A stretch of DNA of 64,000 nt from Bryobacterales bacterium (GTDB taxonomy: Bacteria > Acidobacteriota > Terriglobia > Bryobacterales > UBA6623), in contig OZ242039.1 in assembly GCA_965205085.1 (NCBI GenBank), forward strand, positions 3,954,277 to 4,018,276, read 5' to 3'. The position numbers and the translations under genes are program-made. Of this stretch, positions 7,251-40,274 are shown in pieces (positions within the stretch are counted from its first letter, which is position 1; each line of letters opens with the position of its first letter). The notes beneath the pieces were generated by a model that was not told where the DNA came from, ran no database searches, and worked only from the letters and a program-made list of their open reading frames with translations.

Positions 7251-8282
7251 CTAGAATGTGATGCCAACGCCGCTGACGAGACCGTAGTCGTTGCGCTCGA
7301 CCGATTCTGCTGGCTTCGTGTGGAACCGGTCGAACAGCCGAAGCGAATACGTGAATCTTCCGCTGATCGGCACGCGTAACGTGGTGTCGAGTTCAGCGCG
7401 GACGTTGGTGCGGTCAAACAGGTCCGGGTGCGTTGTCAGGTTTATCGACAATTCGACTCCCCTGAAGATGTGTGTCTCCCACTCCACGCCGAGGACCCCC
7501 TCCACGGAGGCCCTGTCGGGAAGGCGTCGGTACTGTTCGTGCAGATAGGCAAGCCCGCTGACTAGGGACAGCCCAGTGGAGGGGCTGTCCCGCAAGCGCC
7601 AGCCCAGACCGCCGCCCAGTCGGGTTCGGAGGTCGAGCCTGCGTCGCTCGTTCCTCTCGAATCCGGACAGACCGTAGACGAACGTGCTTGCCTTGACGAA
7701 GCGGTCGAGCCGTAGGTTGAGGGCGTGGCGGCTCTGTGCTCTGGCGTCGTCCTGCCGTGCAAACAGCGAGTCCAGCCGACCAGATGCCTTGTAGTGGGCG
7801 GATTCGTAGGTCGCGTGTGCACCGAGAGACGACTGCATTTGGTTCTGGTTCCCTCGGGCCACGCTGTAGCCGATATCAGCGGCACCATCCAGAGTGGCCA
7901 CGAAGCCGCGGATCCCGGTTCCTTTGGCACCGGGTACGATCCTCGTGATCGAGTGGGAATCCACGGCCGTCGCCTCCTCCTCGGGCATTGCGATCTGGGT
8001 CTCGGCACCGCTCCGGGACAGCCTCCCCTCGAGTCGCCTGCCGTCCTCGGTGAGGACGGAGAATTCCGAGTCGCTCTGGAGGGATGCGACATCGCTCCAT
8101 TGCACGCGAACCGTCCCCAGCAGATCGGAAGCCACGATCAGTTTCCCCGCCTCCAGCTGCTTGACAGTTCCGGAAATGCGATCGCCATTGACCAGCAGGA
8201 CCGTGTCTGCCAATGACGGGATCGTTACGACGAGAGCCAGGAGAATTCCGGCAACAAGACTGCAGATTCGCATGGATTTCAT
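7251..8282 (-). CDS. DUF481 (YdiY-like) outer-membrane beta-barrel protein
   Basis: The start at MKSMRICSLVAGILLALVV is a signal peptide. The N-terminus has VLLVNGDRISGTVKQLEAGKLIV, alternating beta-strand repeats follow, and the C-terminus ends ...GVGITF. The upstream extension to 8567 in the ORF track looks non-coding. Confidence 0.75.
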   Translation of the reverse strand: MKSMRICSLVAGILLALVVTIPSLADTVLLVNGDRISGTVKQLEAGKLIVASDLLGTVRVQWSDVASLQSDSEFSVLTEDGRRLEGRLSRSGAETQIAMPEEEATAVDSHSITRIVPGAKGTGIRGFVATLDGAADIGYSVARGNQNQMQSSLGAHATYESAHYKASGRLDSLFARQDDARAQSRHALNLRLDRFVKASTFVYGLSGFERNERRRLDLRTRLGGGLGWRLRDSPSTGLSLVSGLAYLHEQYRRLPDRASVEGVLGVEWETHIFRGVELSINLTTHPDLFDRTNVRAELDTTLRVPISGRFTYSLRLFDRFHTKPAESVERNDYGLVSGVGITF

Positions 8283-8680
8283 CGGGACCGGCCCGTAAGG
8301 AATTCGCACTCCGCTCACCCTTCTAACTCTAGGCCGGTGCGGGGCCGTTTCGAAGGTTCCCCTTAGCGGGACCCACTGCCACGCGCAGGGGATCGCCCCG
8401 TGCTCTGTGCTGGACGTCCGACGCTGGCGGAGGAGCGGATCATCACTGCCAGGTTCGGGTGCGGCCAGTGCCATGCACTGGTCATCGCCGTGCAGGGTGT
8501 GAGACGGCGTCTGCGGCGATGTCCTCCAAGCCTTCCGGCTTGCCAGCCCTTGCGCTGCCGCAACCATTCCGAGCGTCGGGTGCGCCTCGCCCGGCCGGCC
8601 AATCTGTCACGCGCTCCGGATGGCCGGTGCTATGGCGAGCACGACTTGGAGATACCGGTTGACGCTTGGCTCGAAATGCC

Positions 8681-9553
8681 CTACCTCGAAGGGTTCGAAC
8701 CACCCGATGCCGGGGCACCGGGCTGGGGTGGGACCGGTGGCGGGGGGATCAGGCCGTTGGGATCGAAGAGCCGTCCAGGCAGATAGTCTGCCGCGCGGGG
8801 CCCCTCCAGAGCCCGGATCTTGATATTTCGATACCAGACAGGATGATTGTGATGGGTCAGGGCGATGTGTCCCGGTCCCTTGAAGCCAAAGCCCGGAACG
8901 CGTCTGAATTTCGTCCTCTCGACCCGTTGGAAGAAGTCGGGGGAGTTGAATTCGTACTCGAGAATCTTCTGTCCGTTCAGCCAGTGCTCCCCTTGGGTGC
9001 CGCGGACAACGATCCGGGAGGTATTCCACTCGCCCGGCGCACGCAGCGGCTTGTCGCTGGCCGGTTTGTAGAGCAGGTACAGCGAGCCGCAACTGGAGTA
9101 TTCCCATTCGGCCCTGCGCTGATTGAGGCTGCTGTCGTCGAGCAACTGGTACTCGGGTCCTGTGGCGCGCAGCATGGAGAGTCGCTTGGCGTCCTGGCTG
9201 AGGTGCGGACGGTATCCCGGGCCGGCCCAGGCCTTCTGCACCAGGTACTTGACGCCGCTATTGCCACCGCTGACCAGTTTCCAGTCGAAGACCAGCTCGA
9301 AGTTCTCGAACTCGGCCACGGAAACGATGTCACCTCCCCGCCTGTCCGCCAGTGTACGGATGGTGCCGTCCTCGACAGCCCATGATCTGGTCGGGAACGG
9401 GGTACCCTGAAAGCCCTCCCATCCGGTCGACGTCGAACCGTCGAAAAGCAACTGCCAGCCCGCCAGTTTCTCGTCTTCCGAGAGTTGATTGTGCTCCTGG
9501 GCGGACAGTCCCACCCCGACACCTAGCACTGAGACCGCGAGCAACCGTAGCAT
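8681..9553 (-). CDS. Secreted DUF1080 (3-keto-disaccharide hydrolase-like) domain protein
   Basis: Signal peptide MLRLLAVSVLGVGVGLSAQ, then GWQLLFDGSTSTGWEGF...W.VEDGTI...FENFELVFDWKL..GGNSGV...EYQLLDD...GEWNTSRIVVRGT..EHWLNG. Confidence 0.8.
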   Translation of the reverse strand: MLRLLAVSVLGVGVGLSAQEHNQLSEDEKLAGWQLLFDGSTSTGWEGFQGTPFPTRSWAVEDGTIRTLADRRGGDIVSVAEFENFELVFDWKLVSGGNSGVKYLVQKAWAGPGYRPHLSQDAKRLSMLRATGPEYQLLDDSSLNQRRAEWEYSSCGSLYLLYKPASDKPLRAPGEWNTSRIVVRGTQGEHWLNGQKILEYEFNSPDFFQRVERTKFRRVPGFGFKGPGHIALTHHNHPVWYRNIKIRALEGPRAADYLPGRLFDPNGLIPPPPVPPQPGAPASGGSNPSR

Positions 9554-9897
9554 CGTCCGTACCTGCCCTACAGAATACCGGATCCACCCTTTCCTGCATC
9601 GTGGTGGAACCGGGCGGTCCGGCACTGGACGAGACAACGTGTCGGACCTGCCCGCAAAGGGTCCTCGTCCCTGCTGCGGCAGTGTCAGTGCGGGGAGCCC
9701 TCGTCAGACCCTGCGCCGCATCGCTCCCCAACACGAAGCTATTGGTGCCCATGCAAGGGCTGGCTTGAATCGGAATGGCAATACCTGAAACGTGGCGGCC
9801 CCAACGCAATCGTCTCCGAACCCACGATTCCTGTCCTGTTCCATCGACATCCGCTGGCGCAACCTGGCATCTCGCCAAAGGCGAACCGTTCTCGTTC

Positions 9898-12800
9898 TTA
9901 CCGCACGAACATGAATTCGGCGGTGTTGAAGAGCGCATGCGCGAGGTCGGTCCAGACTCCGGAATCGCCGTTGGCCGCCACTCCCCGGGCCGCGGCCTGG
10001 CTGTCCAGAAACCGCCGGACTTCCTGGATCTCGCTCCGTGCCGGCTCGCGGCCGAACGCCTGGATGTACATGCTGCGGATGCGGTTGGTCAGAACTCTGT
10101 GGGAGGAGAGTTCCCGCCGGGCCCACAGCGCCGCCTGCTCGTTCACGAACTCGTTGTTGAGCATGAGCAGAGCCTGCGAGGCGACGGCCGAGACACCGCG
10201 CCGGCCCGCCGTCGAGATCGGTAACGGATAGTCGAAAGCGAGAAACAGCGGCGGAAGAAAGTTCCGCCGGATCTGGATGTACACGCTGCGCCGGCCCAGC
10301 CCGTCGAGTGGTCCAGATTCCGGCTTGCCTCGGCCATCCTGATACACGCTGATGTGCGGAGGAATCCCCGGTCCGCCAACGGTCCGGTCCAGGGTGCCGG
10401 CGATCGCGAGAACGGAATCCCGGATGGCCTCCGCCTCCAGGCGACGTACGGGAAAGTGTGACAGCAGGGCGTTCGAAGGGTCCACCTGCAGGGCCCGCTC
10501 CGACCCCGCACTGTCGGACCGATAGGTGCTCGACAGGACGATCAGCCGGTGCAACGCCTTCACGGACCAGTCGGACTCCATCAGGCGGCTCGCAAGATAG
10601 TCGAGCAATGCGGGATGGGTTGGCCTTGAGCCCATCCGGCCGAAGTCGTCTGGCGAGGCCACGATACCCCGGCCGAAATGGTGATGCCAAATCCGGTTGG
10701 CCATCACACGCGGGGTCAGCGGGTTCGCGGGGCCTGAAATCCAGTGGGCGAGAGCCAAGCGTCCGGATCCCTCCCTCACGGACAACCGGGAGTCGCCGAC
10801 CAGTGCTCGAACGTAACCGCGAGGGACTGTCTCGCCTGGGTTCCTGTGGTTGCCCCGGATGTGAATGCGGGAATCATCGGGCATCCAGTCCCGGCTGGTC
10901 ATGGCAAAGGAGGACTCGGCAAGGTGCCCGGCCAGGTCGGAGCGTCGGCCAAGCAACTTGGCAAAACGCGGTCTTTCGTCTGCTGTCAGCCAGCCTTCGG
11001 CGTCCTCAAGGTCCGTGTGTCCCAGAATCGCGGTCAGTGCCGCGATGTCCCGGGGACCTGGGTTCGCCATGGTTGCGAGATCTTCGGCCAGACGCTGGTA
11101 GCGCGTTGCCAGGTCGGCAAGGGAATGCACGTCCTCGCTGGCCACGAGTTCCAGGACGCGAGCATCGATCGGTCCGGCGATGGGTGGAGGTTCCGGACTG
11201 GAGGAGAATACGATCTGGTCCACGGTGATCGATCCCGCCCGGTCCCGGTCCACGATCTCGATCGCGCAGATCCTGTCGCGCTCCTTGGTCATGGCGACGG
11301 TGTACCACTGCAGGCGCCCGCTCCCATCTGCCATGGCATGGCCCGACTTGTGCTCGTCGGCGACGACCGTAAGTCGCACGGGAGCGTTCTCGCGGAGCCC
11401 TCGGGAGTAGGCCCGCCCGGCGAGCCGCACGTGGACGAAGCGCGCCGGCATGCGGAACTTCTCGGTCGAGAGGGTACCGACCAGCGTGTCCGCTCCACCA
11501 CCGAAGGAAGCCGCAATCGCCTGACCGGCGAAGCCTCCCAGTGCCTGGCTGGCGGGTACGTCACGGACGGGCCGACGACCGAAGGCGGCACCGGTAGGGT
11601 TCCACTGCGCGTAGCCGTTCTCGAAGTCCTCGAAGATCTCGTCGCCCCTTTCCGTCCAGATTGGGTGGCTGCGGAGGGCCTTGGCGGCCCAGTCGGCCAT
11701 CTCCGCACGGAGCTGCTCCCTCCACTCCGGGAATGCGGGGGAGGCCGGCTCCTGGCGGACCTTTGCGCTGCGCGCGAAGGGATAGAGCCAGTGGCTGGGT
11801 TCGGTCAGTGCATACCGCAGTTCCGCTGCCATCCCGGACGCCGCCTCAGACGAGATTTCACTCGCCGCCGCCAGGAGACGTTCCGCCAGCGAATCGACGG
11901 CCCTGGAGCGAGCCGTGTCCAGAATGGTGCCGATCTCGCGATTAACCTCGGCAATCCTGCCTGACGTCTCCCAGATATCGCGTATTCGCGTCGGCGAGTC
12001 GACTGACACCTCAGCCATATGCGTGGACTGCAGGATTCCGAAGAGCGAGTAGTAGTCGGCAGTTCGAATCGGGTCGAACTTGTGGTCGTGGCACCGTGCG
12101 CACGCGACGGTGAGTGCCTGGGTGGCCTTCGACAGGACGTCGATCTGATTGTCGATCTGGTCGGCCCGGGCCTTTACCGAGTCGGTTGGAGAGTTCAGGA
12201 CCTCCCACAGCCAGTACATCCCTGACGCGATCGGATTGACGTGATGAGTACCGTCGGCCGACAGCCTCGGAGGGAGCAAGTCCCCGGCGATCTGCTCCCG
12301 AAGAAACATGTCGTACGGGAGATCCTCGTTAAAGGAATTGATCACGTAATCGCGGTACCGCCACGCATCGAGCTTGTTGTTGTCGAATTCGTGGCCATTG
12401 GTTTCGGCCCAGCGGACGAGATCCAGCCAATGGCGCCCCCACCGCTCGCCGTAGTGGGGTGAACCGAGCAGCCGCTCCACGACCCGCTCGAAAGCTCCCG
12501 GGCTGGTGTCATCCCGGAAGGCACCGATTTCGGCACGAGTGGGCGGAAGGCCCGTCAGGTCGAAGGTAACCCGACGCAACAGGGTCAGCCGGTCCGCATC
12601 CCCGGCAGGCGTCAGGCCTTTCGCCTCGAGTCGGGCGAGAACGAATCGATCGACATCGTTGCGCGGCCACGAATCGTTCTCGACATCGGGCGTTTCCGGG
12701 TCTGTGACAGGCCGAAAACTCCAGAATCGCTCGGGGCCACCGGTATCCACCTCCTCGTCAGGTGCAGCGCTCGTCTCCTGCGTCGACCGTGGGTCCGGGG

Positions 12801-34045: not shown

Positions 34046-34420
34046 ATGGAATCGCAGACTCCCAAGAGACTCCTCGTTGCCATCCCCGACCTGTACTTCG
34101 GATCGAAGGTCTTGGGTGTTGCCCGCCATCTTGGCGTCGAAGTCGAGATGGCAGGGTCGAGGGCTGCAGTTGTGGAGAGGGCCCGGTCGGGCGTGGATCT
34201 GATCCTGGTCGACCTGGATGCGGTCGAAATGGATCCCATCGGGGCGATTCGAGACATCCGGGCCGGAGCCAGCCCTCGGGTAGTGGCTTTTGCCAGCCAT
34301 GTCCATGCCGACCGGCTCGAAGAAGCCAGGGCAGCGGGCTGCGACGAGGTTCTCACGCGGGGCGGGCTCGCGTCGAGCCTGCCGTCTCTGCTTGCACCGC
34401 TCAGATCGCGACCGGAGTGA
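34046..34420 (+). CDS. Receiver-like (CheY-fold) single-domain protein, atypical active site
   Basis: KRLLVAIPDL...DLILVDLD...PRVVAFASH...AGCDEVLTRG has a receiver-like beta-alpha pattern. The conserved Lys position reads H. The 3' end overlaps the glgC 3' end by 20 nt. Confidence 0.5.
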   Translation: MESQTPKRLLVAIPDLYFGSKVLGVARHLGVEVEMAGSRAAVVERARSGVDLILVDLDAVEMDPIGAIRDIRAGASPRVVAFASHVHADRLEEARAAGCDEVLTRGGLASSLPSLLAPLRSRPE

Positions 34421-35654
34421 TCGGAATCGTTGTTCGGGAACCCTCGACGACCACGATTCCGCCACTGGAAACGTGGTATCGATTCCGGTCCGACTCTTCG
34501 TCGTACCCGATCTTGACACCCCGCGGGATGCGAGCGTTCTTATCAATGATCGCCCGCCGGACCTGCGCTCCCGCGCCGATGTGGCAACGGGCCATGACAA
34601 TCGAGTCCTCCACTGTCGCACCACTGTCGATGTAGACGCTTCGGCCCACGATCGACCGAGTCACGGCCGAGCCGTGAAGGACACAGCCCTCAGCCACGAC
34701 CGAGTCGATGGCCTCGCCACCACGGCCCTCGGTGTCGGTGAGATAGCGTGCAGGCGCAGCCGGATACTCGGCAGTCCGCAACGGCCACTGGCTGTTGGAT
34801 AGATTCAGTGCCGGACGAATGGACCGAAGATCCATGTTCGCGTCATAGTAGGCCTCGACCGTGCCGACGTCGCGCCAGTAGCCGTGATTCTCCGGCCGCT
34901 CCCCGGGTACCACGTTCGTCAGGTAGTCGTACGCATAGACGGGCATCTCGCTCACCATCTTCGGGAGCATGTCCCGTCCAAAGTCGTGCCCGCTGTCCGG
35001 CTTGGCCGCATCCCGGCGGAGCTCGCCAACAAGCACCTCCGCATCGAAAATATAGTTGCCCATGGAGGCTAGGCACCAGCCCGGCCGGTTGGGAATCTCG
35101 GGCGGGTTCGCGACTTTCTCGTGGAAGCCCACAATTTGCCAGTTCTCATCAATTTCCATCGTCCCGAACCGGCTGGCCTCCTCGACTCGAATCGGGAGCG
35201 CCGCGACCGTTCCCTTCGAACCCTTGGCGTGGTGGTAGGCGATCATCTGGCGGATGTCCATGAAGTAGATGTGATCGGCACCGAACACCGCGACGGTCTC
35301 CGGCTGCGAAAGCTCGATCAGGTGAATGTTCTGATGGATGGCGTCGGAGGTGCCTTGATACCAGCGCTCCCCCTTGCGCATCTGGGCGGGCACGGGAATG
35401 ATGAACTGGCTGTTCAGCAGATCGGAGAAGTGCCATGCGTTGCGCATGTGTTGCAGAAGCGACTGGCTCTTGAACTGGGTCAGAACGTAGATCGAATAGA
35501 TGCCGGAATTAATGAAGTTGCTCAGCACAAAGTCCACGATGCGATATTTGCCGGCGAACGGGACCGCGGGCTTGCTGCGCTCCTTCGTGAGTGGGAATAG
35601 GCGCGTCCCTTTGCCCCCCGCCAAGATCAGTCCGAGAACTCGTTCGTATCGCAT
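34401..35654 (-). CDS. glgC: Glucose-1-phosphate adenylyltransferase
   Basis: The start at 35654 gives [52 protein letters not shown] left-handed beta-helix forms the C-terminus. Confidence 0.92.
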
Positions 35655-36717
35655 ATGAAATCCGTTTGAGACGGATAAACCAAACTCCCTGCCTAGCCGT
35701 AACTTCAGTATACGGTTCTGGAGCGAGCCCCCCTTCGCGCCCCTACGGCCACAAATCGGATCGCAGCGTGCTGAAGGCTGTGTCGTCGTTCGTGTCTTCG
35801 ACGAGTTCGCATCCTCCACAACGATGAATTTCCGGCATCCGCGGATCATGGCGTGTTTGACGGTGACCGCCATCTTGTTTCGTTCCGGCGGCGTCTGCCC
35901 ACATATGCTCATCTGCTCATCCGGACCTTGCGAACGCCGCAACGAAGAGTGGCATCATTAGCAGTGCAGAGAGGCCACCGGATTCGGTGCAGCAGGACGA
36001 GCCGGCGACGTTGAGTGCTTGCTATTGAAGCAGCCAGGAAGGGAGGCGGTCACAGTGACCGACTGGAATCGGGAGGTGGGGAGCGTGAGGGGCAGCGGGC
36101 ACGGGATGGGAACCGGGGGAACTGAGCGGGACCGCGCTAACGACAGCGGCCGGCATAGGATCGCCATCAGTTCCACCGACCGATCACATTGCACGGCTGT
36201 ACCCGCCAAGTCCCTCCATACCAGCCAGAGTCTGCCCTATCACCTCACTCGCTGGCACCGCAATTGCATGCAGGGGAACGGTTGGGAAGCAACCTCCTCC
36301 AAGACGGGCGTCTCCCGGCCCCTGTGAGTGTTCCTCCGTCACACCTGTAGGCTCGGACCGCTTCCCAAGCAGCCAGCGGCCAAGGTGCCGGGGTCGGCGC
36401 ACACGCCCGTCGGCGCACGGGGCGTGGCGCTGAGGCAGTCCGATACTGCCTGTACCCTGCTCGATCAGGCTTGGTGAGGTTCGGCTTGCGTTCCCAAATT
36501 CGAGGATGGGAGCCAAAAGGATGGCGCGACAACAGTCGGCGAAATTGTCAGGCGGAGAGGGGGCAACCCCGAACTGTGGCACCACCATCAATTGCGAGGC
36601 CGAGTAGTGGGCTATGGCTGAAGCGCGGCGCTCATCGCGCCGCGGGGCAAGGATGTCGGCAAGGACCGCAGCACGAATCTGCGCGCGCAGGCCCGTCAGT
36701 CGGCAGTCGACCAGGCG

Positions 36718-37542
36718 ATGGCGGCCGCCGAGCGTAACAACCCGTCGGTCGACTGCGAACTACTTTGCGACTTTCCTTGGCTGGCCTTGGACAGGCGGCG
36801 GCTCGGCCACATCTGCGACCTCGGCAGCAACATCCGGGCGGACGTCAAGTTCCATGATGTGCTCGTCCTCATCCTCGAGTGCCTCCGGTCGGACTTCGTG
36901 AGCGCTGAGGCCAAGAAGGGTGGCGAGTTCTCAATGGGAACGTCGGCACGGCCAGGGTGGAAATGCGCGTCGACGGTCTCGAGTCCAACTGACCGCCCCC
37001 CGGACTTGCAAGCCGATTTCATCCTCGCTGACCAGCCGGGTCACGTCTCGGACTGGGGCGGTGAGTGGTTGATGGAGAACCAGTGCCGGTGCTGCGGAGT
37101 GCCGGCGAACGACGACGCCAACTTTGCGCAGGTGCAGCACATGGTGCACCATCTGGACCTGGCTGGCGTGGCGTGGAAGGTGCGCGCGAACGGGTCGATG
37201 TGGTCGAGCCACTTGGGCCGGAGCCACCAGAGCGAGGCTGACTTGGTGAACCAAATGGTCGCGCAGGGAAGGGCCATCTCCTCGACGCCGATTGCAGCGT
37301 GCCTGTGGCGTCTGGGACGCCGGCGACCGCCGCGCGGTGAGACCCTGTTCAGCGACGAGCACAGGGCGGGCCGGATGGTTGACGGAATGCTCCGCGTACT
37401 GAACGCCGGGGAGCCGTTCGAGGGTAAGTTGCGGCCGGTGGTCGGGGAGTTGCAAGTGCCGCCGCCGCGAGGGACAACTTGGCGGCCTTGGGCTTTCCGT
37501 TACGCTGGGATGGCTGATGAGACTCGAGTTGACACCGCTTGA
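36718..37542 (+). pseudogene. hsdM: Relic of a type I R-M methyltransferase subunit (hsdM): catalytic motif lost, internal deletion
   Basis: ...AEAKKGGEF (GGEFYTP region), then ADFILADQPGHVSDWGGE where the NPPF motif reads DQPG (37030-37041). Further matches are GVPANDDANFAQVQHMVHHL, ANGSMWSS, SEADLVNQMVA...STPIAACLW and RGETLFSDEHRAGRMVD. Only about 45 aa separate GGEF from the NPPF position, so the AdoMet-binding segment appears to be missing. Confidence 0.7.
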
Positions 37543-37957
37543 TGATGCGATTGCACAGCTTGAGGACGCGCTGGATTATCACGACTCGGACCCGGTGTTG
37601 CGTGACCCGGCTCGCAGGCTGCATCTCAGAGCCGCCGCAATCCAAGCCTTCGAGTTCACGTACGAGTTGTCCTTCAAAATGATCAAGCGCCATCTCGAAC
37701 AGGCATCCGAAAATCCCGCCCAACTCGATGAAATGGGCTTCAACGCCATCCTGCGCGAAGCCTTTCGGCGGGGACTTGTGCAGTCCGAGGTGTCCGCCTG
37801 GAAGGAGTACCGGAAGCTTCGGGGCACGACGAGCCATACCTACCACGGGGACAAGGCTCAGATCGTCTTCGAGGGCATTCCTGCCTTCCTCCAGGAAGCC
37901 CGATACCTCCGGGACCAGCTTCGGCAGAGGAACGAGTCCCTTGACGCCACCAATTGA
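37517..37957 (+). CDS. HEPN-domain protein, HI0074 / nucleotidyltransferase-substrate-binding family (toxin-type partner of MNT)
   Basis: 146 aa with FEFTYELSFKMIKRHL and the Rx4H motif in WKEYRKLRGTTSHTYHGD. The reading frame is intact. Confidence 0.8.
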   Translation: MRLELTPLDDAIAQLEDALDYHDSDPVLRDPARRLHLRAAAIQAFEFTYELSFKMIKRHLEQASENPAQLDEMGFNAILREAFRRGLVQSEVSAWKEYRKLRGTTSHTYHGDKAQIVFEGIPAFLQEARYLRDQLRQRNESLDATN

Positions 37958-39566
37958 CATCCGCCCCGTCGACTTGCGCATCGTCTGGGAGGTGCTGCGC
38001 CAGCATCTGCCTGCCGGCGTGAGAGTCTGGGTCTTTGGGAGTCGCGCGAGCTGGATGACGAAGGACTCGTCCGACCTGGATCTCGCACTGGACGGGAAAA
38101 CCGCGATCCCGCTTAGCAGACTGTCCGCACTGGAGGCAGCGTTCGAGGACTCGGACCTTCCTTACGCCGTGGACATCGTCGACCTCAAGCGTGTCAGCGA
38201 CCGATTCCGACGCCTCGTGCAACTGCAACGCATACCGTTTCCGGCAGCAGAGGAATCGCAGGATCGCGGGAAGTGGAAGGATGTCCCGCTCGACAATCTC
38301 GCTGACATTTACGACGGTCCTCCCGCGACTCCAGGGAAGACCCGGAGGTGCCCGGTTATTCTTGGGATTTCCAATCTCGCTTCCGTGCGTCTCGATCTCA
38401 CGCAGGCAGAGCATCTCCCGGAAGCCGACTACGGAAGATGGATGCGTCGCGTCATGCCCGCGCCGAACGATATCGTGTTCTCCTACGAGACACGCCGTGG
38501 GCGACGAATGGGTTTGATCCGCCCGAGAGACGGAGAAATAGACGCGAGGTATCTGCTGTATGCGTTTCTCGGAGACGGGGTTCAGAACAGGCTGCGGGCA
38601 CCAGCGGTCCACGGAAATACAGTCGACCGGATTCTGCCGACCGAGGTGTCCGGCGTCCCGGTCCGAGTGCCCCAAGCTATCACTGAGCAACGTGCCATCG
38701 CTCAAATCCTCGGTAGGCTGGACGACAAGATCGACTTGAACTGTCGGATGAACGAGACCCTGGGGGCGATGGTGGATAGCCTGTTCCGGTCCTGGTTCGT
38801 CGAGTTCGACCCAGTCCGGGCCAAGATGGTGAGCCGCGACCCGGGGCTCGCGAGGGAGTTCGCCGAGATGTTCCCCGACCGGCTGGTGGATTCGGACCTG
38901 GGGGAGATTCCGGAGGGGTGGGTTGTCGGGACGCTTGGCGACATGGCCGATGCGTCGCGGCGCGGGGGAGATCCCGGGCAAGCCGCCGGCGACACGCCCA
39001 GCGTCGGGCTGGAACCGATTCCGTGTAGGTCGATTGCCCGGACTGATTGGGGCCAGGTCGGGAGAGTTTCGAGTACCGGGACGGTCTTCGAGAATCGGGC
39101 TTCGCCGTTGGGGAAGCTGCGGCCCAGCTTCCCCAGGGCGGGCATCGGCCCCGTGAACGGCGTCTGCCCTGCGGACATTGTGATGCTGAAGGCCCGGAAG
39201 CCGGCATGGTCTGCTTTCGTTCTTGCTTGCGTCTCGTCGTCCGGATTCGTCAGCTACGCGAACCAGACTTCGACAGGCATGCAGATGCCGCGAACCAGTT
39301 GGCGCATGATGAGCAGGTACGAGATGTGCCGGCCCTCCGAACCTGTCTTGGCGGCGTTTCAGCAGATCGTGTCGTCGATGGTGGAGGGAATCGTCGCCAA
39401 TGTTCACGAATCCCGCACGCTTGGCCTTCTCCGGGACACGCTGTTGCCAAGGCTGGTTTCCGGCCAGTTGCGGGTGACGGGGCTGGACGGCTCGAGTATG
39501 CACGAGGACCGTCCTCCTCCACCGGCCGCGATACCCGGAGCCTGCCGGAGCGTCGACCGTGGTTGA
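37941..39566 (+). CDS. Minimal nucleotidyltransferase (MNT, HI0073-like) reading in frame into a degenerate type I R-M specificity subunit (HsdS)
   Basis: MNT part: VWVFGSRASWMTKDSSDLDLAL...LPYAVDIVDL. There is no stop before the HsdS part. HsdS has two target-recognition domains and conserved repeats: EQRAIAQILGRLDDKIDLNCRMNETLGAMVDSLFRSWFVEFDPVRAK and ESRTLGLLRDTLLPRLVSGQLRV. Several normally conserved positions are altered (DGPPATP, LEPIP, KLRPSFPR, VCPADI). The start is taken as the TTG at 37941 and is uncertain. Confidence 0.7.
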   Translation: MTPPIDIRPVDLRIVWEVLRQHLPAGVRVWVFGSRASWMTKDSSDLDLALDGKTAIPLSRLSALEAAFEDSDLPYAVDIVDLKRVSDRFRRLVQLQRIPFPAAEESQDRGKWKDVPLDNLADIYDGPPATPGKTRRCPVILGISNLASVRLDLTQAEHLPEADYGRWMRRVMPAPNDIVFSYETRRGRRMGLIRPRDGEIDARYLLYAFLGDGVQNRLRAPAVHGNTVDRILPTEVSGVPVRVPQAITEQRAIAQILGRLDDKIDLNCRMNETLGAMVDSLFRSWFVEFDPVRAKMVSRDPGLAREFAEMFPDRLVDSDLGEIPEGWVVGTLGDMADASRRGGDPGQAAGDTPSVGLEPIPCRSIARTDWGQVGRVSSTGTVFENRASPLGKLRPSFPRAGIGPVNGVCPADIVMLKARKPAWSAFVLACVSSSGFVSYANQTSTGMQMPRTSWRMMSRYEMCRPSEPVLAAFQQIVSSMVEGIVANVHESRTLGLLRDTLLPRLVSGQLRVTGLDGSSMHEDRPPPPAAIPGACRSVDRG

Positions 39567-39593
39567 TGTTGCCCCCTCGTTCGGGATTGCCTG

Positions 39594-40274
39594 CTAATGT
39601 TGCCGTTCCAGCCTGCCGTCGACGAGTTCCGAGCGACTCGGGAATCGTGCCGCGAGGTCCGCGCTGTGCGTGACGGTGACCAACAGGATGTTGTGCTCAC
39701 GCTGCAGTTCCAGCAAGAGGTCCCCGACCTTCCCGGCGCTGTGCCGGTCCAGGTTGCCGGTCGGCTCGTCGGCAAGGACGACCGGCGGCCTGTTGATCAG
39801 GGCGCGAGCGATCGCTACGCGCTGGCGCTCGCCGCCCGATAGCTCCGAAGGAAGCCGGTCCATCCGGCCCCCAAGGCCCACGCGGTCCAGTAGTTCCAGG
39901 GCGCGGTCGGGTTCGCCAGGCGACGACCCTCGGTTAGGAAGGGTGGGCACCAGGACGTTCTCAAGGCTTGTGCACTGCGGCAGCAGGTGGTGGTCCTGAA
40001 AGACGAAGCCGATACTCCGGTTGCGGAATCGAGCGAGCGAGGCCGTGTCCAGGGAGAAGGGATTCTGACCGCAGATCGTCACCGCGCCAGCGGTGGGCGT
40101 CTCCAGCGATCCCAGGATGTACAATAGCGTGCTCTTCCCGGAGCCGGAGGGGCCCATCACCGCCATGGCATCGCCCCGATCCATGACAAGGGACAGGTCG
40201 TCCAGAATGACCAAGGCTCCGGACGAGTGCGGATATTCCTTGCGCAGACCGCGAACGGATAGATCTGCGGACAT
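39594..40274 (-). CDS. ABC transporter ATP-binding protein (LolD/MacB/FtsE-like), no permease gene adjacent
   Basis: Walker A GPSGSGKSTLL, Q-loop, LSGGERQRVAIARAL and ADEPTGNLD. Confidence 0.9.
   Translation of the reverse strand: MSADLSVRGLRKEYPHSSGALVILDDLSLVMDRGDAMAVMGPSGSGKSTLLYILGSLETPTAGAVTICGQNPFSLDTASLARFRNRSIGFVFQDHHLLPQCTSLENVLVPTLPNRGSSPGEPDRALELLDRVGLGGRMDRLPSELSGGERQRVAIARALINRPPVVLADEPTGNLDRHSAGKVGDLLLELQREHNILLVTVTHSADLAARFPSRSELVDGRLERQH

Follow-up and report, generated by a model that had tools for sequence, protein, structure and literature searches.

The 541-codon reading frame that joins a minimal nucleotidyltransferase (MNT) to the specificity subunit (HsdS) of a type I restriction-modification (R-M) system represents a widespread and apparently undescribed type of gene, designated MNT::HsdS here, in which the adenylyltransferase antitoxin of a type VII toxin-antitoxin (TA) system would constitute the N-terminal domain of HsdS. 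In the 64-kb window (the whole stretch of DNA that was analysed), this gene is probably part of a decayed type I R-M island in which an embedded type VII pair, consisting of a HEPN RNase and the MNT, has outlived the restriction half. The features on which this reading is based are as follows.

35668-39600, no strand assigned: inserted island of 3.93 kb; the syntenic site in the closest related genomes does not contain it
36518-37473, + strand: hsdM pseudogene remnant, recognised by tblastn/blastn against the intact hsdM of loci L001 and L082-84
37517-37957, + strand: HEPN gene of the HI0074/NTase_sub_bind family, intact, 146 aa (PF08780, E=1.2e-28)
37941-39566, + strand: MNT::HsdS reading frame, 541 codons plus stop, TTG start, overlapping the HEPN gene by 17 nt
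37941-38240, + strand: MNT domain, HI0073-type minimal nucleotidyltransferase, aa 1-100
38241-38276, + strand: linker, aa 101-112, poorly conserved and variable in length and sequence in the alignment
38277-38675, + strand: first target-recognition domain (TRD1) of HsdS, aa 113-245; 42 nt are deleted in frame at about 38490/38491
38676-38915, + strand: central conserved region of HsdS, aa 246-325
38916-39476, + strand: TRD2 and C-terminal conserved helix of HsdS, aa 326-512
39477-39566, + strand: C-terminal tail, aa 513-541, non-conserved and predicted to be disordered

Translation from the TTG at 37941 to the TGA at 39564-39566 yields 541 aa without an intervening stop, which bears out the single frame described in the first-pass annotation. 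The MNT domain, a short linker and an HsdS with two TRDs lie on one polypeptide that aligns end to end with more than 100 fused proteins. The TTG is preceded by AGAGGA, a Shine-Dalgarno-like sequence, and is conserved as the start among the nearest orthologues; the 612-aa ORF that begins at ATG 37728 is the same frame extended back across the HEPN gene. Because the two genes overlap, the HEPN gene and the fusion gene are probably translationally coupled. The linker is modelled with low confidence by AlphaFold (pLDDT <50 at aa 103-109), and the tail ends at most 35 nt from the island boundary. The open frame was rejected as a sign of selection and says little alone, because an antisense ORF of 587 aa spans the same DNA and the HsdS part remained stop-free in 12-31% of neutral simulations at the observed excess divergence; the corresponding probability for the hsdM remnant was about 6%.

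The first-pass annotation had proposed a database search for the same domain fusion, and the MNT::HsdS architecture was found in 105 of the best 120 database matches (40-57% identity, 94-97% coverage). A single ORF spans MNT and HsdS in 45 of 81 GTDB loci and is abutted by a HEPN ORF in 43 of those 45; the 45-46 fused loci come from more than 10 phyla, their taxa including Chloroflexota, Acidobacteriota, Gemmatimonadota, Proteobacteria, Spirochaetia, Verrucomicrobiota and Nitrospinota, among others. Across 46 fused ORFs, hsdM lies upstream in 43 and hsdR downstream in 40, the GS...DxD motif is present in all 46, and R-x4-6-H-x-Y is carried by 37 of the 45 neighbouring HEPN proteins. The standard operon of the family runs hsdM, HEPN, MNT::hsdS, optional accessory ATPases and hsdR, and the intact operons of L001 and L082-84 display the gene order of the window together with the 17-nt HEPN overlap and the TTG start. 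The window shares with the family the fusion and the overlapping upstream HEPN gene, and lacks the intact flanking hsdM and hsdR. Among the nearest 150 representatives of the MNT domain (50% clusters), 94 carry HsdS, and 22 are shorter than 160 aa, have no HsdS match and are likely stand-alone MNTs.

It had been suggested in the first-pass annotation that the fusion may simply reflect loss of a stop codon in a dying gene, so that separate MNT and hsdS genes became joined at this locus during pseudogenisation. The clear degeneration of the HsdS part is what such a local accident would lead one to expect, yet the same one-chain architecture recurs in intact operons spread over many phyla, with the linker at the same position, the same TTG start and the same overlap with HEPN. 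HsdS relatives without the fusion mostly lack a neighbouring MNT gene, and the sole apparent case of a split pair (L073) resembles a frameshifted fusion. This genome is not a lone exception among relatives that keep the two genes apart; the opposite holds, and a joining event confined to this locus is refuted by these comparative data. A stop or frameshift missed at the junction during sequencing or assembly might be entertained for what is probably a metagenome-assembled genome, but the junction reads identically across more than 100 independent assemblies and an identical protein has been recorded (P0001), leaving artefact with a negligible probability. The earlier statement that no MNT-HsdS fusion is known from the literature agrees with our literature search, from which most subscription journals and REBASE were out of reach and which found no paper describing one; in databases, however, the architecture is abundant, and it is contained in a PADLOC 'Specificity_I' profile.

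In the genomes with the empty site, the ABC-ATPase gene and glgC lie 38-47 nt apart, and blastn of the window against L085-L087 places the end of homology at 35667/35641 and its restart at 39601, with glgC 86-88% identical. The matches to glgC place the source of the window in Bryobacterales (Acidobacteriota). No nearby tRNA, Rfam match, convincing target-site duplication or terminal inverted repeats were found at the island; a 14-nt repeat pair at 35951/39591 is at chance level, and a Pfam search of the left ~850 nt (35668-36520) returned no domain. The module came to this genome by way of this 3.9-kb insertion, after which the restriction half died, leaving hsdM as a pseudogene, hsdR absent, and HsdS short of 14 residues and about a quarter of its invariant ones. 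From an original hsdM of about 1590 nt, the blocks 36518-36631, 36706-36931, 36991-37412 and 37403-37473 remain. Deletions of ~154 nt (causing a frameshift), 216 nt and ~165 nt have occurred, the second of them covering HsdM residues 192-283, in which the AdoMet-binding motif presumably lies. The catalytic NPPF has become DQPG, the score against Pfam N6_Mtase is as low as 34 bits, and the window-branch dN/dS is about 0.6 (0.62) versus 0.12-0.15 in intact pairs, with a branch-length ratio, window versus others, of 7.0. A search for hsdR across the 64-kb window found none, and the cognate HsdM and HsdR needed for M2S1 or R2M2S1 complexes are missing from it. The window represents 64 kb of a 5.67-Mb genome, and further hsdM or hsdR genes could exist elsewhere.

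The HsdS part spans aa 113-512 and is recognised by PADLOC Specificity_I (E=2e-67) and by a Foldseek match to 1YF2 (E=9.5e-16). Pfam PF01420 (Methylase_S) reaches only 14.8 bits, under its cut-off of 22, whereas every close homologue carries this domain. The short in-frame deletion that had been noticed in TRD1 is real and comprises 14 codons; 26 of the 85 TRD1 positions that are invariant in relatives have also changed. The central region, which we take to be the HsdM-contacting part of type I enzymes, has changed at 8 of 37 invariant positions. At columns conserved at 90% or more in about 100 family members, its substitutions include E265D, R268C, E275G, A278V, R279D, A280S, D288E and G298S, among others, and there are 13 deviations at such columns as compared with a median of 3. 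In TRD2, 15 of 52 invariant columns are lost (Y396S, H398P, S410P and T447M among them). Leave-one-out controls for such losses gave 0-7 differences. Derived window-branch dN/dS values are about 0.30 for TRD1 and 0.41 for the central region, and the branch-length ratios are 4.0 and 3.1, respectively. In total, HsdS has lost 50 of 187 invariant columns (27%) versus 12% for MNT, a contrast that is weak (Fisher p=0.02; p=0.06 when only point changes are counted), and by dN/dS the MNT domain is barely better preserved than HsdS (0.34 versus 0.30-0.41).

The relaxed constraint on HsdS that the first-pass annotation had proposed is upheld by the deletion, by the invariant losses in all three regions and by the loss of the partner subunits. 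Its further remark, that many of the odd residues are His or Tyr replaced by Pro or Ser, holds for H128P, H398P and Y396S, all located at invariant columns, but these are few sites in a mixed spectrum. Forty-two codon changes could be inferred at positions invariant across four homologues, with 16 AT>GC and 21 GC>AT events and single-base classes of A>C 3, T>G 4, G>A 7 and C>T 6. Directed mutation, whether adenine-targeted and DGR-like or of a mutT-like A>C bias, was rejected as the source of the His/Tyr-to-Pro/Ser changes on the basis of this mixed spectrum.

An alternative is that the ORF still encodes a functional specificity subunit whose target has changed, serving hsdM and hsdR encoded elsewhere in a genome of which only 64 kb are covered. 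The open full-length frame would suit this, as would the quick divergence for which TRDs are known and the HsdS fold that AlphaFold gives for the 541-aa ORF (pLDDT 81), although AlphaFold confidence was rejected as uninformative on HsdS integrity because the alignment drives the model. Neither of the properties expected of a functional HsdS, a Methylase_S score above threshold and a preserved central region, was found, and the substitutions extend to residues that do not vary among proteins sharing its TRD types. Together with the missing TRD1 residues and the destruction of the cognate hsdM, these observations make a working subunit decidedly improbable.

The HEPN gene is full length and indel-free across its 146 codons, with 75-78% identity to orthologues, and its protein also matches NCBIfam TIGR01987 (81 bits), PDB 1JOG (E=1e-25) and the L. 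pneumophila HEPN 8XDJ (E=2e-7). The motif R102-x4-H107-x-Y109 (RGTTSHTY) is present and conforms to the RX4HXY signature of type VII toxins, and the protein is predicted to be an RNase toxin. Its dN/dS of 0.13-0.21 (derived window-branch value ~0.16) is like that of intact pairs, its branch-length ratio is 2.3, and the gene is under purifying selection. The MNT domain is matched by Pfam PF18765 (MNT/Pol-beta nucleotidyltransferase, aa 5-100, E=5.6e-8) and by HI0073 (PDB 1NO5; E=1e-12 by sequence, TM 0.88 by Foldseek). Direct reading against near-invariant alignment columns shows that the catalytic G33-S34...S44-D45-L46-D47 and D78 are kept, as are all 12 near-invariant residues; the GSx(9-11)(S/T)DxD motif and downstream Asp of type VII MNTs are both present. 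Only 7 of 60 invariant columns deviate (12%), most of them conservatively; the derived window-branch dN/dS is about 0.34 and the branch-length ratio 2.2.

The whole island, HEPN and MNT included, could instead be inert junk, the HEPN gene looking intact since it is short and the decay recent. Several observations are compatible with this: the island lies antisense to the flanking operon, the MNT dN/dS is somewhat raised, neutral simulations indicate that frames of this size can stay open by chance, and a scan for sigma-70-like promoters and terminators, which is uninformative for this phylum, found nothing above shuffled sequences. We nevertheless consider inert junk unlikely, as the HEPN window-branch dN/dS matches that of intact orthologues while the adjacent hsdM is riddled with deletions, RGTTSHTY is retained in an indel-free gene, and 12 of 12 near-invariant MNT residues are kept. 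Survival of the TA half, most likely as an addiction relic, is the reading we prefer because purifying selection acts on an intact HEPN gene and the MNT has retained its catalytic residues; toxicity, addiction and expression are here inferred. The frame would then be open mainly since the first 100 codons continue to be required, and the HsdS part would be an appendage that has ceased to recognise DNA within a working enzyme. A stop immediately after MNT should also be tolerated under addiction, which leaves the persistence of the full frame unexplained by it; that persistence may be due to chance.

The pair most resembles HI0073/HI0074 of H. influenzae (PDB 1NO5, 1JOG) and the HEPN-MNT of L. 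pneumophila, with which it shares a HEPN of the HI0074/NTase_sub_bind family and the R-x4-H-x-Y motif; pairs of this kind are less studied than HepT/MntA. As in L. pneumophila lpg2920/lpg2921 (PDB 8XDJ, 8XEH, 8XEO), the MNT is of the short HI0073 type that lacks the long C-terminal helix; in the L. pneumophila type VII module, too, the HEPN gene precedes and overlaps the MNT gene, the MNT has no alpha-4 helix, and the acceptor Tyr lies in RX4HXY (PMC11586414). In both of these systems the MNT is a free protein of ~100 aa, whereas in the window it is the N-terminus of an HsdS of ~540 aa, and the pair of the MNT::HsdS family is placed between hsdM and hsdR. In HepT/MntA of Shewanella oneidensis, a type VII TA, the MNT adenylylates a Tyr beside the HEPN Rx4-6H active site (PMC7641770; PMC4621449). 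By homology with HepT/MntA and the L. pneumophila pair, the MNT domain would AMPylate the Tyr of the HEPN R-x4-H-x-Y and so silence the RNase toxin. The GS...DxD motif is conserved between HepT/MntA and the window pair, and the predicted chemistry is taken from that system; however, the window MNT is distant from it (31 bits against the NCBIfam MntA_antitoxin model, below the 60-bit cut-off), the gene order is opposite, with MntA first, and HepT/MntA has no R-M link. MNT genes have been described as 'almost always' 5' of HEPN (Anantharaman 2013). FhepTA, a fused MNT-HEPN (PMC13000451), likewise places a type VII component within a multidomain protein, but it joins the antitoxin to its own toxin, whereas MNT::HsdS joins it to a subunit of another defence system and leaves the toxin separate. 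Canonical HsdS proteins (PDB 1YF2, EcoKI 2Y7C, EcoR124I 7BST) have two TRDs and conserved helical regions like the window protein (Foldseek E=9.5e-16 to 7.6e-11), which differs in its additional 100-residue N-terminal enzyme domain, its degenerate body and its absent partners.

HEPN-MNT modules and other HEPN toxins cluster with R-M operons, and a mechanistic link between them is hypothetical except for PrrC. The PrrC of the PrrC/EcoprrI system is a HEPN anticodon nuclease encoded within a type Ic R-M locus; the R-M complex keeps it latent, and T4 Stp triggers it. It resembles the present family in that a gene for a HEPN RNase lies within a type I hsd operon, but PrrC has an N-terminal ABC-ATPase domain, no MNT partner and a non-covalent association with the R-M complex, whereas neutralisation in MNT::HsdS would be enzymatic, with the antitoxin domain covalently within HsdS. 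The window HEPN, a 146-aa single-domain protein, lacks the ABC-ATPase and C-terminal HEPN arrangement of PrrC/RloC, and the likeness is one of context by analogy and not of membership. According to the 'R-M guardian' idea, the R-M complex restrains a suicide nuclease (PMC12707154). Tentatively, and with considerable doubt, a comparable role can be imagined for intact MNT::HsdS operons, in which the tethered antitoxin would make the HEPN RNase a reporter of the type I complex's state. As long as M2S or R2M2S were made and correctly assembled, MNT would keep HEPN AMPylated; upon loss of the operon or attack by a phage anti-restriction factor, neutralisation would stop and the RNase would arrest the cell. 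Candidate triggers would include the DNA mimics Ocr and ArdA, or a Stp-like peptide, distorting or titrating the complex. If this were true, the family would be an enzymatic, covalently wired counterpart of the PrrC principle, and the window would show the predicted end state, with the addictive half outlasting the restriction half.

A conserved covalent fusion of antitoxin and HsdS in more than 10 phyla constitutes testable evidence for physical coupling of the two systems, and a single operon with a defined acceptor tyrosine provides an experimental handle. For this genome the message is more modest, namely a horizontally acquired and largely dead R-M island in which the TA pair are the only plausibly active genes. 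The family also affects annotation: its proteins are currently named only 'restriction endonuclease subunit S', a name that hides the TA component, and profiles for defence systems, PADLOC PDLC03138 among them, silently include the MNT domain. The first-pass annotation called the MNT 'antitoxin-like' yet overlooked the intact cognate HEPN gene at 37517-37957, which is key to the interpretation of the locus.

The reading frame that begins at TTG 37941 is open throughout to the stop codon at 39564-39566 (541 codons), and the first-pass annotation was right to place a minimal nucleotidyltransferase (MNT) and a type I specificity subunit (HsdS) in one stop-free frame there; the length of the open frame is not informative in neutral simulations. 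Directly 5' of it, and overlapping the TTG by 17 nt, is an intact HEPN gene that the first-pass annotation overlooked.

Features of the window copy
36518-36631; 36706-36931; 36991-37412; 37403-37473: hsdM remnant, in four blocks (DNA alignment to intact hsdM genes)
37517-37957: intact HEPN gene, HI0074/NTase_sub_bind family, 146 codons
37941-39566 (+): MNT::hsdS
Residues 1-100: MNT domain (Pfam Polbeta E=5.6e-8; PDB 1NO5/HI0073 E=1e-12; Foldseek TM 0.88)
Residues 101-112: linker, weakly conserved and of low model confidence
Residues 113-512: HsdS with two target-recognition domains (TRDs) (PADLOC Specificity_I E=2e-67; Foldseek 1YF2 E=9.5e-16)

Pfam Methylase_S scores just 14.8 bits on this ORF (cut-off, 22). 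The HEPN protein matches PF08780 (E=1.2e-28), TIGR01987 (81 bits), and PDB 1JOG (E=1e-25), and carries R102-x4-H107-x-Y109. According to two reports on characterised type VII toxin-antitoxin systems, R-x4-H-x-Y is an RNase motif whose Tyr is adenylylated by MNT antitoxins (PMC11586414; PMC7641770). Two further open frames, which could misdirect gene callers, are high-GC artefacts: a 612-aa ORF from ATG 37728 (+, to 39566), which is the fusion frame extended back over the HEPN gene (the sense frame is open for 213 nt 5' of the true start), and a 587-aa antisense ORF (37740-39503, -) that overlies the fusion gene.

It had been suggested that the fusion may reflect loss of a stop codon in a dying gene, an origin refuted by its distribution. 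Among 5.8 billion proteins, more than 100 of 510-580 aa carry both PF18765 and PF01420 (40-57% identity, 94-97% query coverage), and the MNT domain is present in 105 of the best 120 matches. When a single genome of each GTDB species was scanned, 81 loci emerged; one ORF covers MNT and HsdS in 45, with an abutting HEPN ORF in 43 of these; hosts include Dehalococcoidia, Vicinamibacterales, Bryobacterales, Longimicrobiales, several proteobacterial classes, Spirochaetia, Opitutales, Nitrospinaceae, Poribacteria, Latescibacterota, and Thermodesulfobacteriota. On the same strand, fused ORFs have hsdM upstream (43/46) and hsdR downstream (40/46); all 46 keep GS...(S/T)DxD, and R-x4-6-H-x-Y is kept in 37 of 45 HEPN neighbours. 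Where a related HsdS has no MNT domain, a separate gene for MNT or HEPN is hardly ever found alongside, so the fused state was not derived in each lineage from a neighbouring gene pair. A search with the MNT domain only (1.84 billion cluster representatives; 800 matches at E<=1e-10) found HsdS in 94 of the best 150 matches, and only 22 of those 150 fell below 160 aa and lacked an HsdS match; these are likely free-standing MNTs. The PADLOC profile PDLC03138 (Specificity_I) itself has the MNT domain at its N-terminus. MNT::HsdS is a conserved family and not a local event, and the evidence indicates a widespread variant, seemingly not yet described, of toxin-antitoxin systems linked to restriction-modification (R-M); no description of such a protein was found in the full-text literature, whose coverage was incomplete, so that this is absence of evidence only. 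At one locus alone (L073:7968-9633), MNT (7968-8354) and HsdS (8023-9633) occupy different overlapping frames; a fusion that was frameshifted or wrongly assembled seems a better account of this than two ancestrally separate genes. Two HsdS relatives carry other domains, N-terminal or otherwise added, namely Polbeta with DUF559/Vsr-like and MTES_1575 REase-like domains (P0008, 724 aa) and GIY-YIG (P0046, 543 aa), so HsdS seems to serve as a platform for added effector or regulator domains.

In the HsdS half, the suspicion of a dying gene holds. Compared with relatives of the same TRD types, strictly invariant columns are lost at 26/85 positions in TRD1, 8/37 in the central region, and 15/52 in TRD2 (leave-one-out controls lose 0-7), and the suspected in-frame TRD1 deletion amounts to 42 nt (14 codons) at ~38490/38491. 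At columns conserved at >=90%, the window copy deviates most among about 100 family members (13 deviations, median 3), all 13 falling in HsdS. The MNT domain has changed at 7/60 invariant columns, mainly by I/V/L exchanges, and retains 12/12 near-invariant residues, including G33, S34, S44, D45, D47, and D78; its contrast with HsdS is modest (Fisher p=0.02; p=0.06 without deleted columns). The reported His or Tyr to Pro or Ser changes are real (H128P, H398P, Y396S); the inferable substitutions (AT>GC 16, GC>AT 21, A>C 3/47) are an ordinary mixture and indicate no special mutational mechanism. The hsdM remnant has lost ~154 nt (with a frameshift), 216 nt, and ~165 nt between its blocks, and its catalytic NPPF has become DQPG; the 216-nt loss corresponds to HsdM residues 192-283, which we take to be the part holding the AdoMet-binding motif. 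No hsdR-like sequence was found anywhere within the 64-kb window, and the restriction half of this copy is dead.

Three-point branch-length ratios (window/other) are 2.3 for HEPN, 2.2 for MNT, 3.1 for the central region, 4.0 for TRD1, and 7.0 for hsdM, and window-branch dN/dS values derived from Nei-Gojobori estimates are ~0.16, ~0.34, ~0.41, ~0.30, and ~0.62, respectively (intact pairs, 0.11-0.32). Together with the column losses, these give an order of decay in which hsdM is far ahead, followed by the HsdS body and, roughly, MNT, with HEPN untouched and not distinguishable from intact orthologues. The main rival reading, that the whole island is inert, HEPN included, fits poorly with a HEPN gene at omega ~0.16 and free of indels beside an hsdM at omega ~0.6 with four deletions. 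For the window, survival of the toxin-antitoxin pair beyond the loss of its restriction system is the most economical reading.

The architecture is widely conserved, catalytic motifs are kept in both partners, and the R-M parts have decayed selectively. By analogy with characterised homologues, the MNT domain would adenylylate Y109 of the HEPN RNase and so silence it. For the family, tethering of the antitoxin to HsdS suggests two candidate roles: an addiction device that would stabilise the whole hsd operon, or a PrrC-like guardian that would fire on loss or inhibition of the R-M complex. In the window, the first 100 codons of the gene are probably still needed, with the HsdS portion persisting as a C-terminal relic. 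The closest homologue, the L. pneumophila module, has the same HEPN-first order, overlapping genes, and MNT without helix alpha-4 (PMC11586414). HEPN-MNT modules near R-M operons were recorded by Anantharaman et al. (2013), and PrrC is the one worked-out HEPN nuclease held by R-M (PMC12707154); unlike the window locus, PrrC lacks an MNT and contains an ABC-ATPase domain, which makes the locus analogous to PrrC and not a member of its family.

The window copy is horizontally acquired and degenerate. By its glgC sequence, the genome belongs to Acidobacteriota, close to Bryobacterales (named matches, 67-71% identity). In three related contigs (glgC 86-88% identical), only 38-47 nt separate an ABC-ATPase gene from glgC, whereas homology of the window to these relatives stops at ~35667 and starts again at 39601, so that an insertion of 3.93 kb (hsdM remnant, HEPN, MNT::hsdS), in antisense orientation relative to its flanking genes, splits this tight pair. 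Neither an integrase or tRNA nor a target-site duplication or terminal repeat turned up for 35668-39600, and the left 850 nt (35668-36520) had no match. As called, glgC (34401-35942, -; 513 aa, TTG start) extends 96 codons beyond the conserved 417-aa protein; its real start is ATG 35654, at the island boundary.

In the four intact operons read closely (L001, L082, L083, L084), hsdM comes first, followed by HEPN and then MNT::hsdS; the TTG start, an AGAGGA site, and the HEPN overlap are common to the window and its nearest three (L082-84). In L083, an accessory ATPase and then hsdR follow; in L001, hsdR lies ~10 kb downstream, and the L082 and L084 loci end before any hsdR. Between hsdM and HEPN, three of the four operons carry a small conserved ORF (MTVxELIxxL...LRVVVxGYEEGYDDLxPRQISxVRIALNTG...ALVLRR) that belongs to no Pfam family and has homologues in at least seven other loci; L084 has a 492-aa YopA-like gene in this slot, and in the window, where the hsdM wreck lies 5' of HEPN, the small ORF is deleted. 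Some type I operons hold two HEPN/MNT sets, a free-standing pair plus HEPN with MNT::HsdS; in L001, the two sets flank a Schlafen/AlbA_2-HATPase_c_4 gene, and downstream, ahead of hsdR, is a ubiquitin-like (ThiF/E2/Multi_ubiq) cluster. ATPase genes 3' of MNT::hsdS, in L083 directly between it and hsdR, are candidates for further embedded defences.

Features of intact operons
L082:9308-9553; L083:9181-9426; L001:9319-9573: small ORF, 81-84 aa
L001:6468-7338 and 9597-11620: double HEPN/MNT sets (also in L046, L055, L070)
L083:11641-13941; L082:13770-15089; L001:19771-20901: ABC/AAA_13/AAA_15/AAA_21-type ATPase genes
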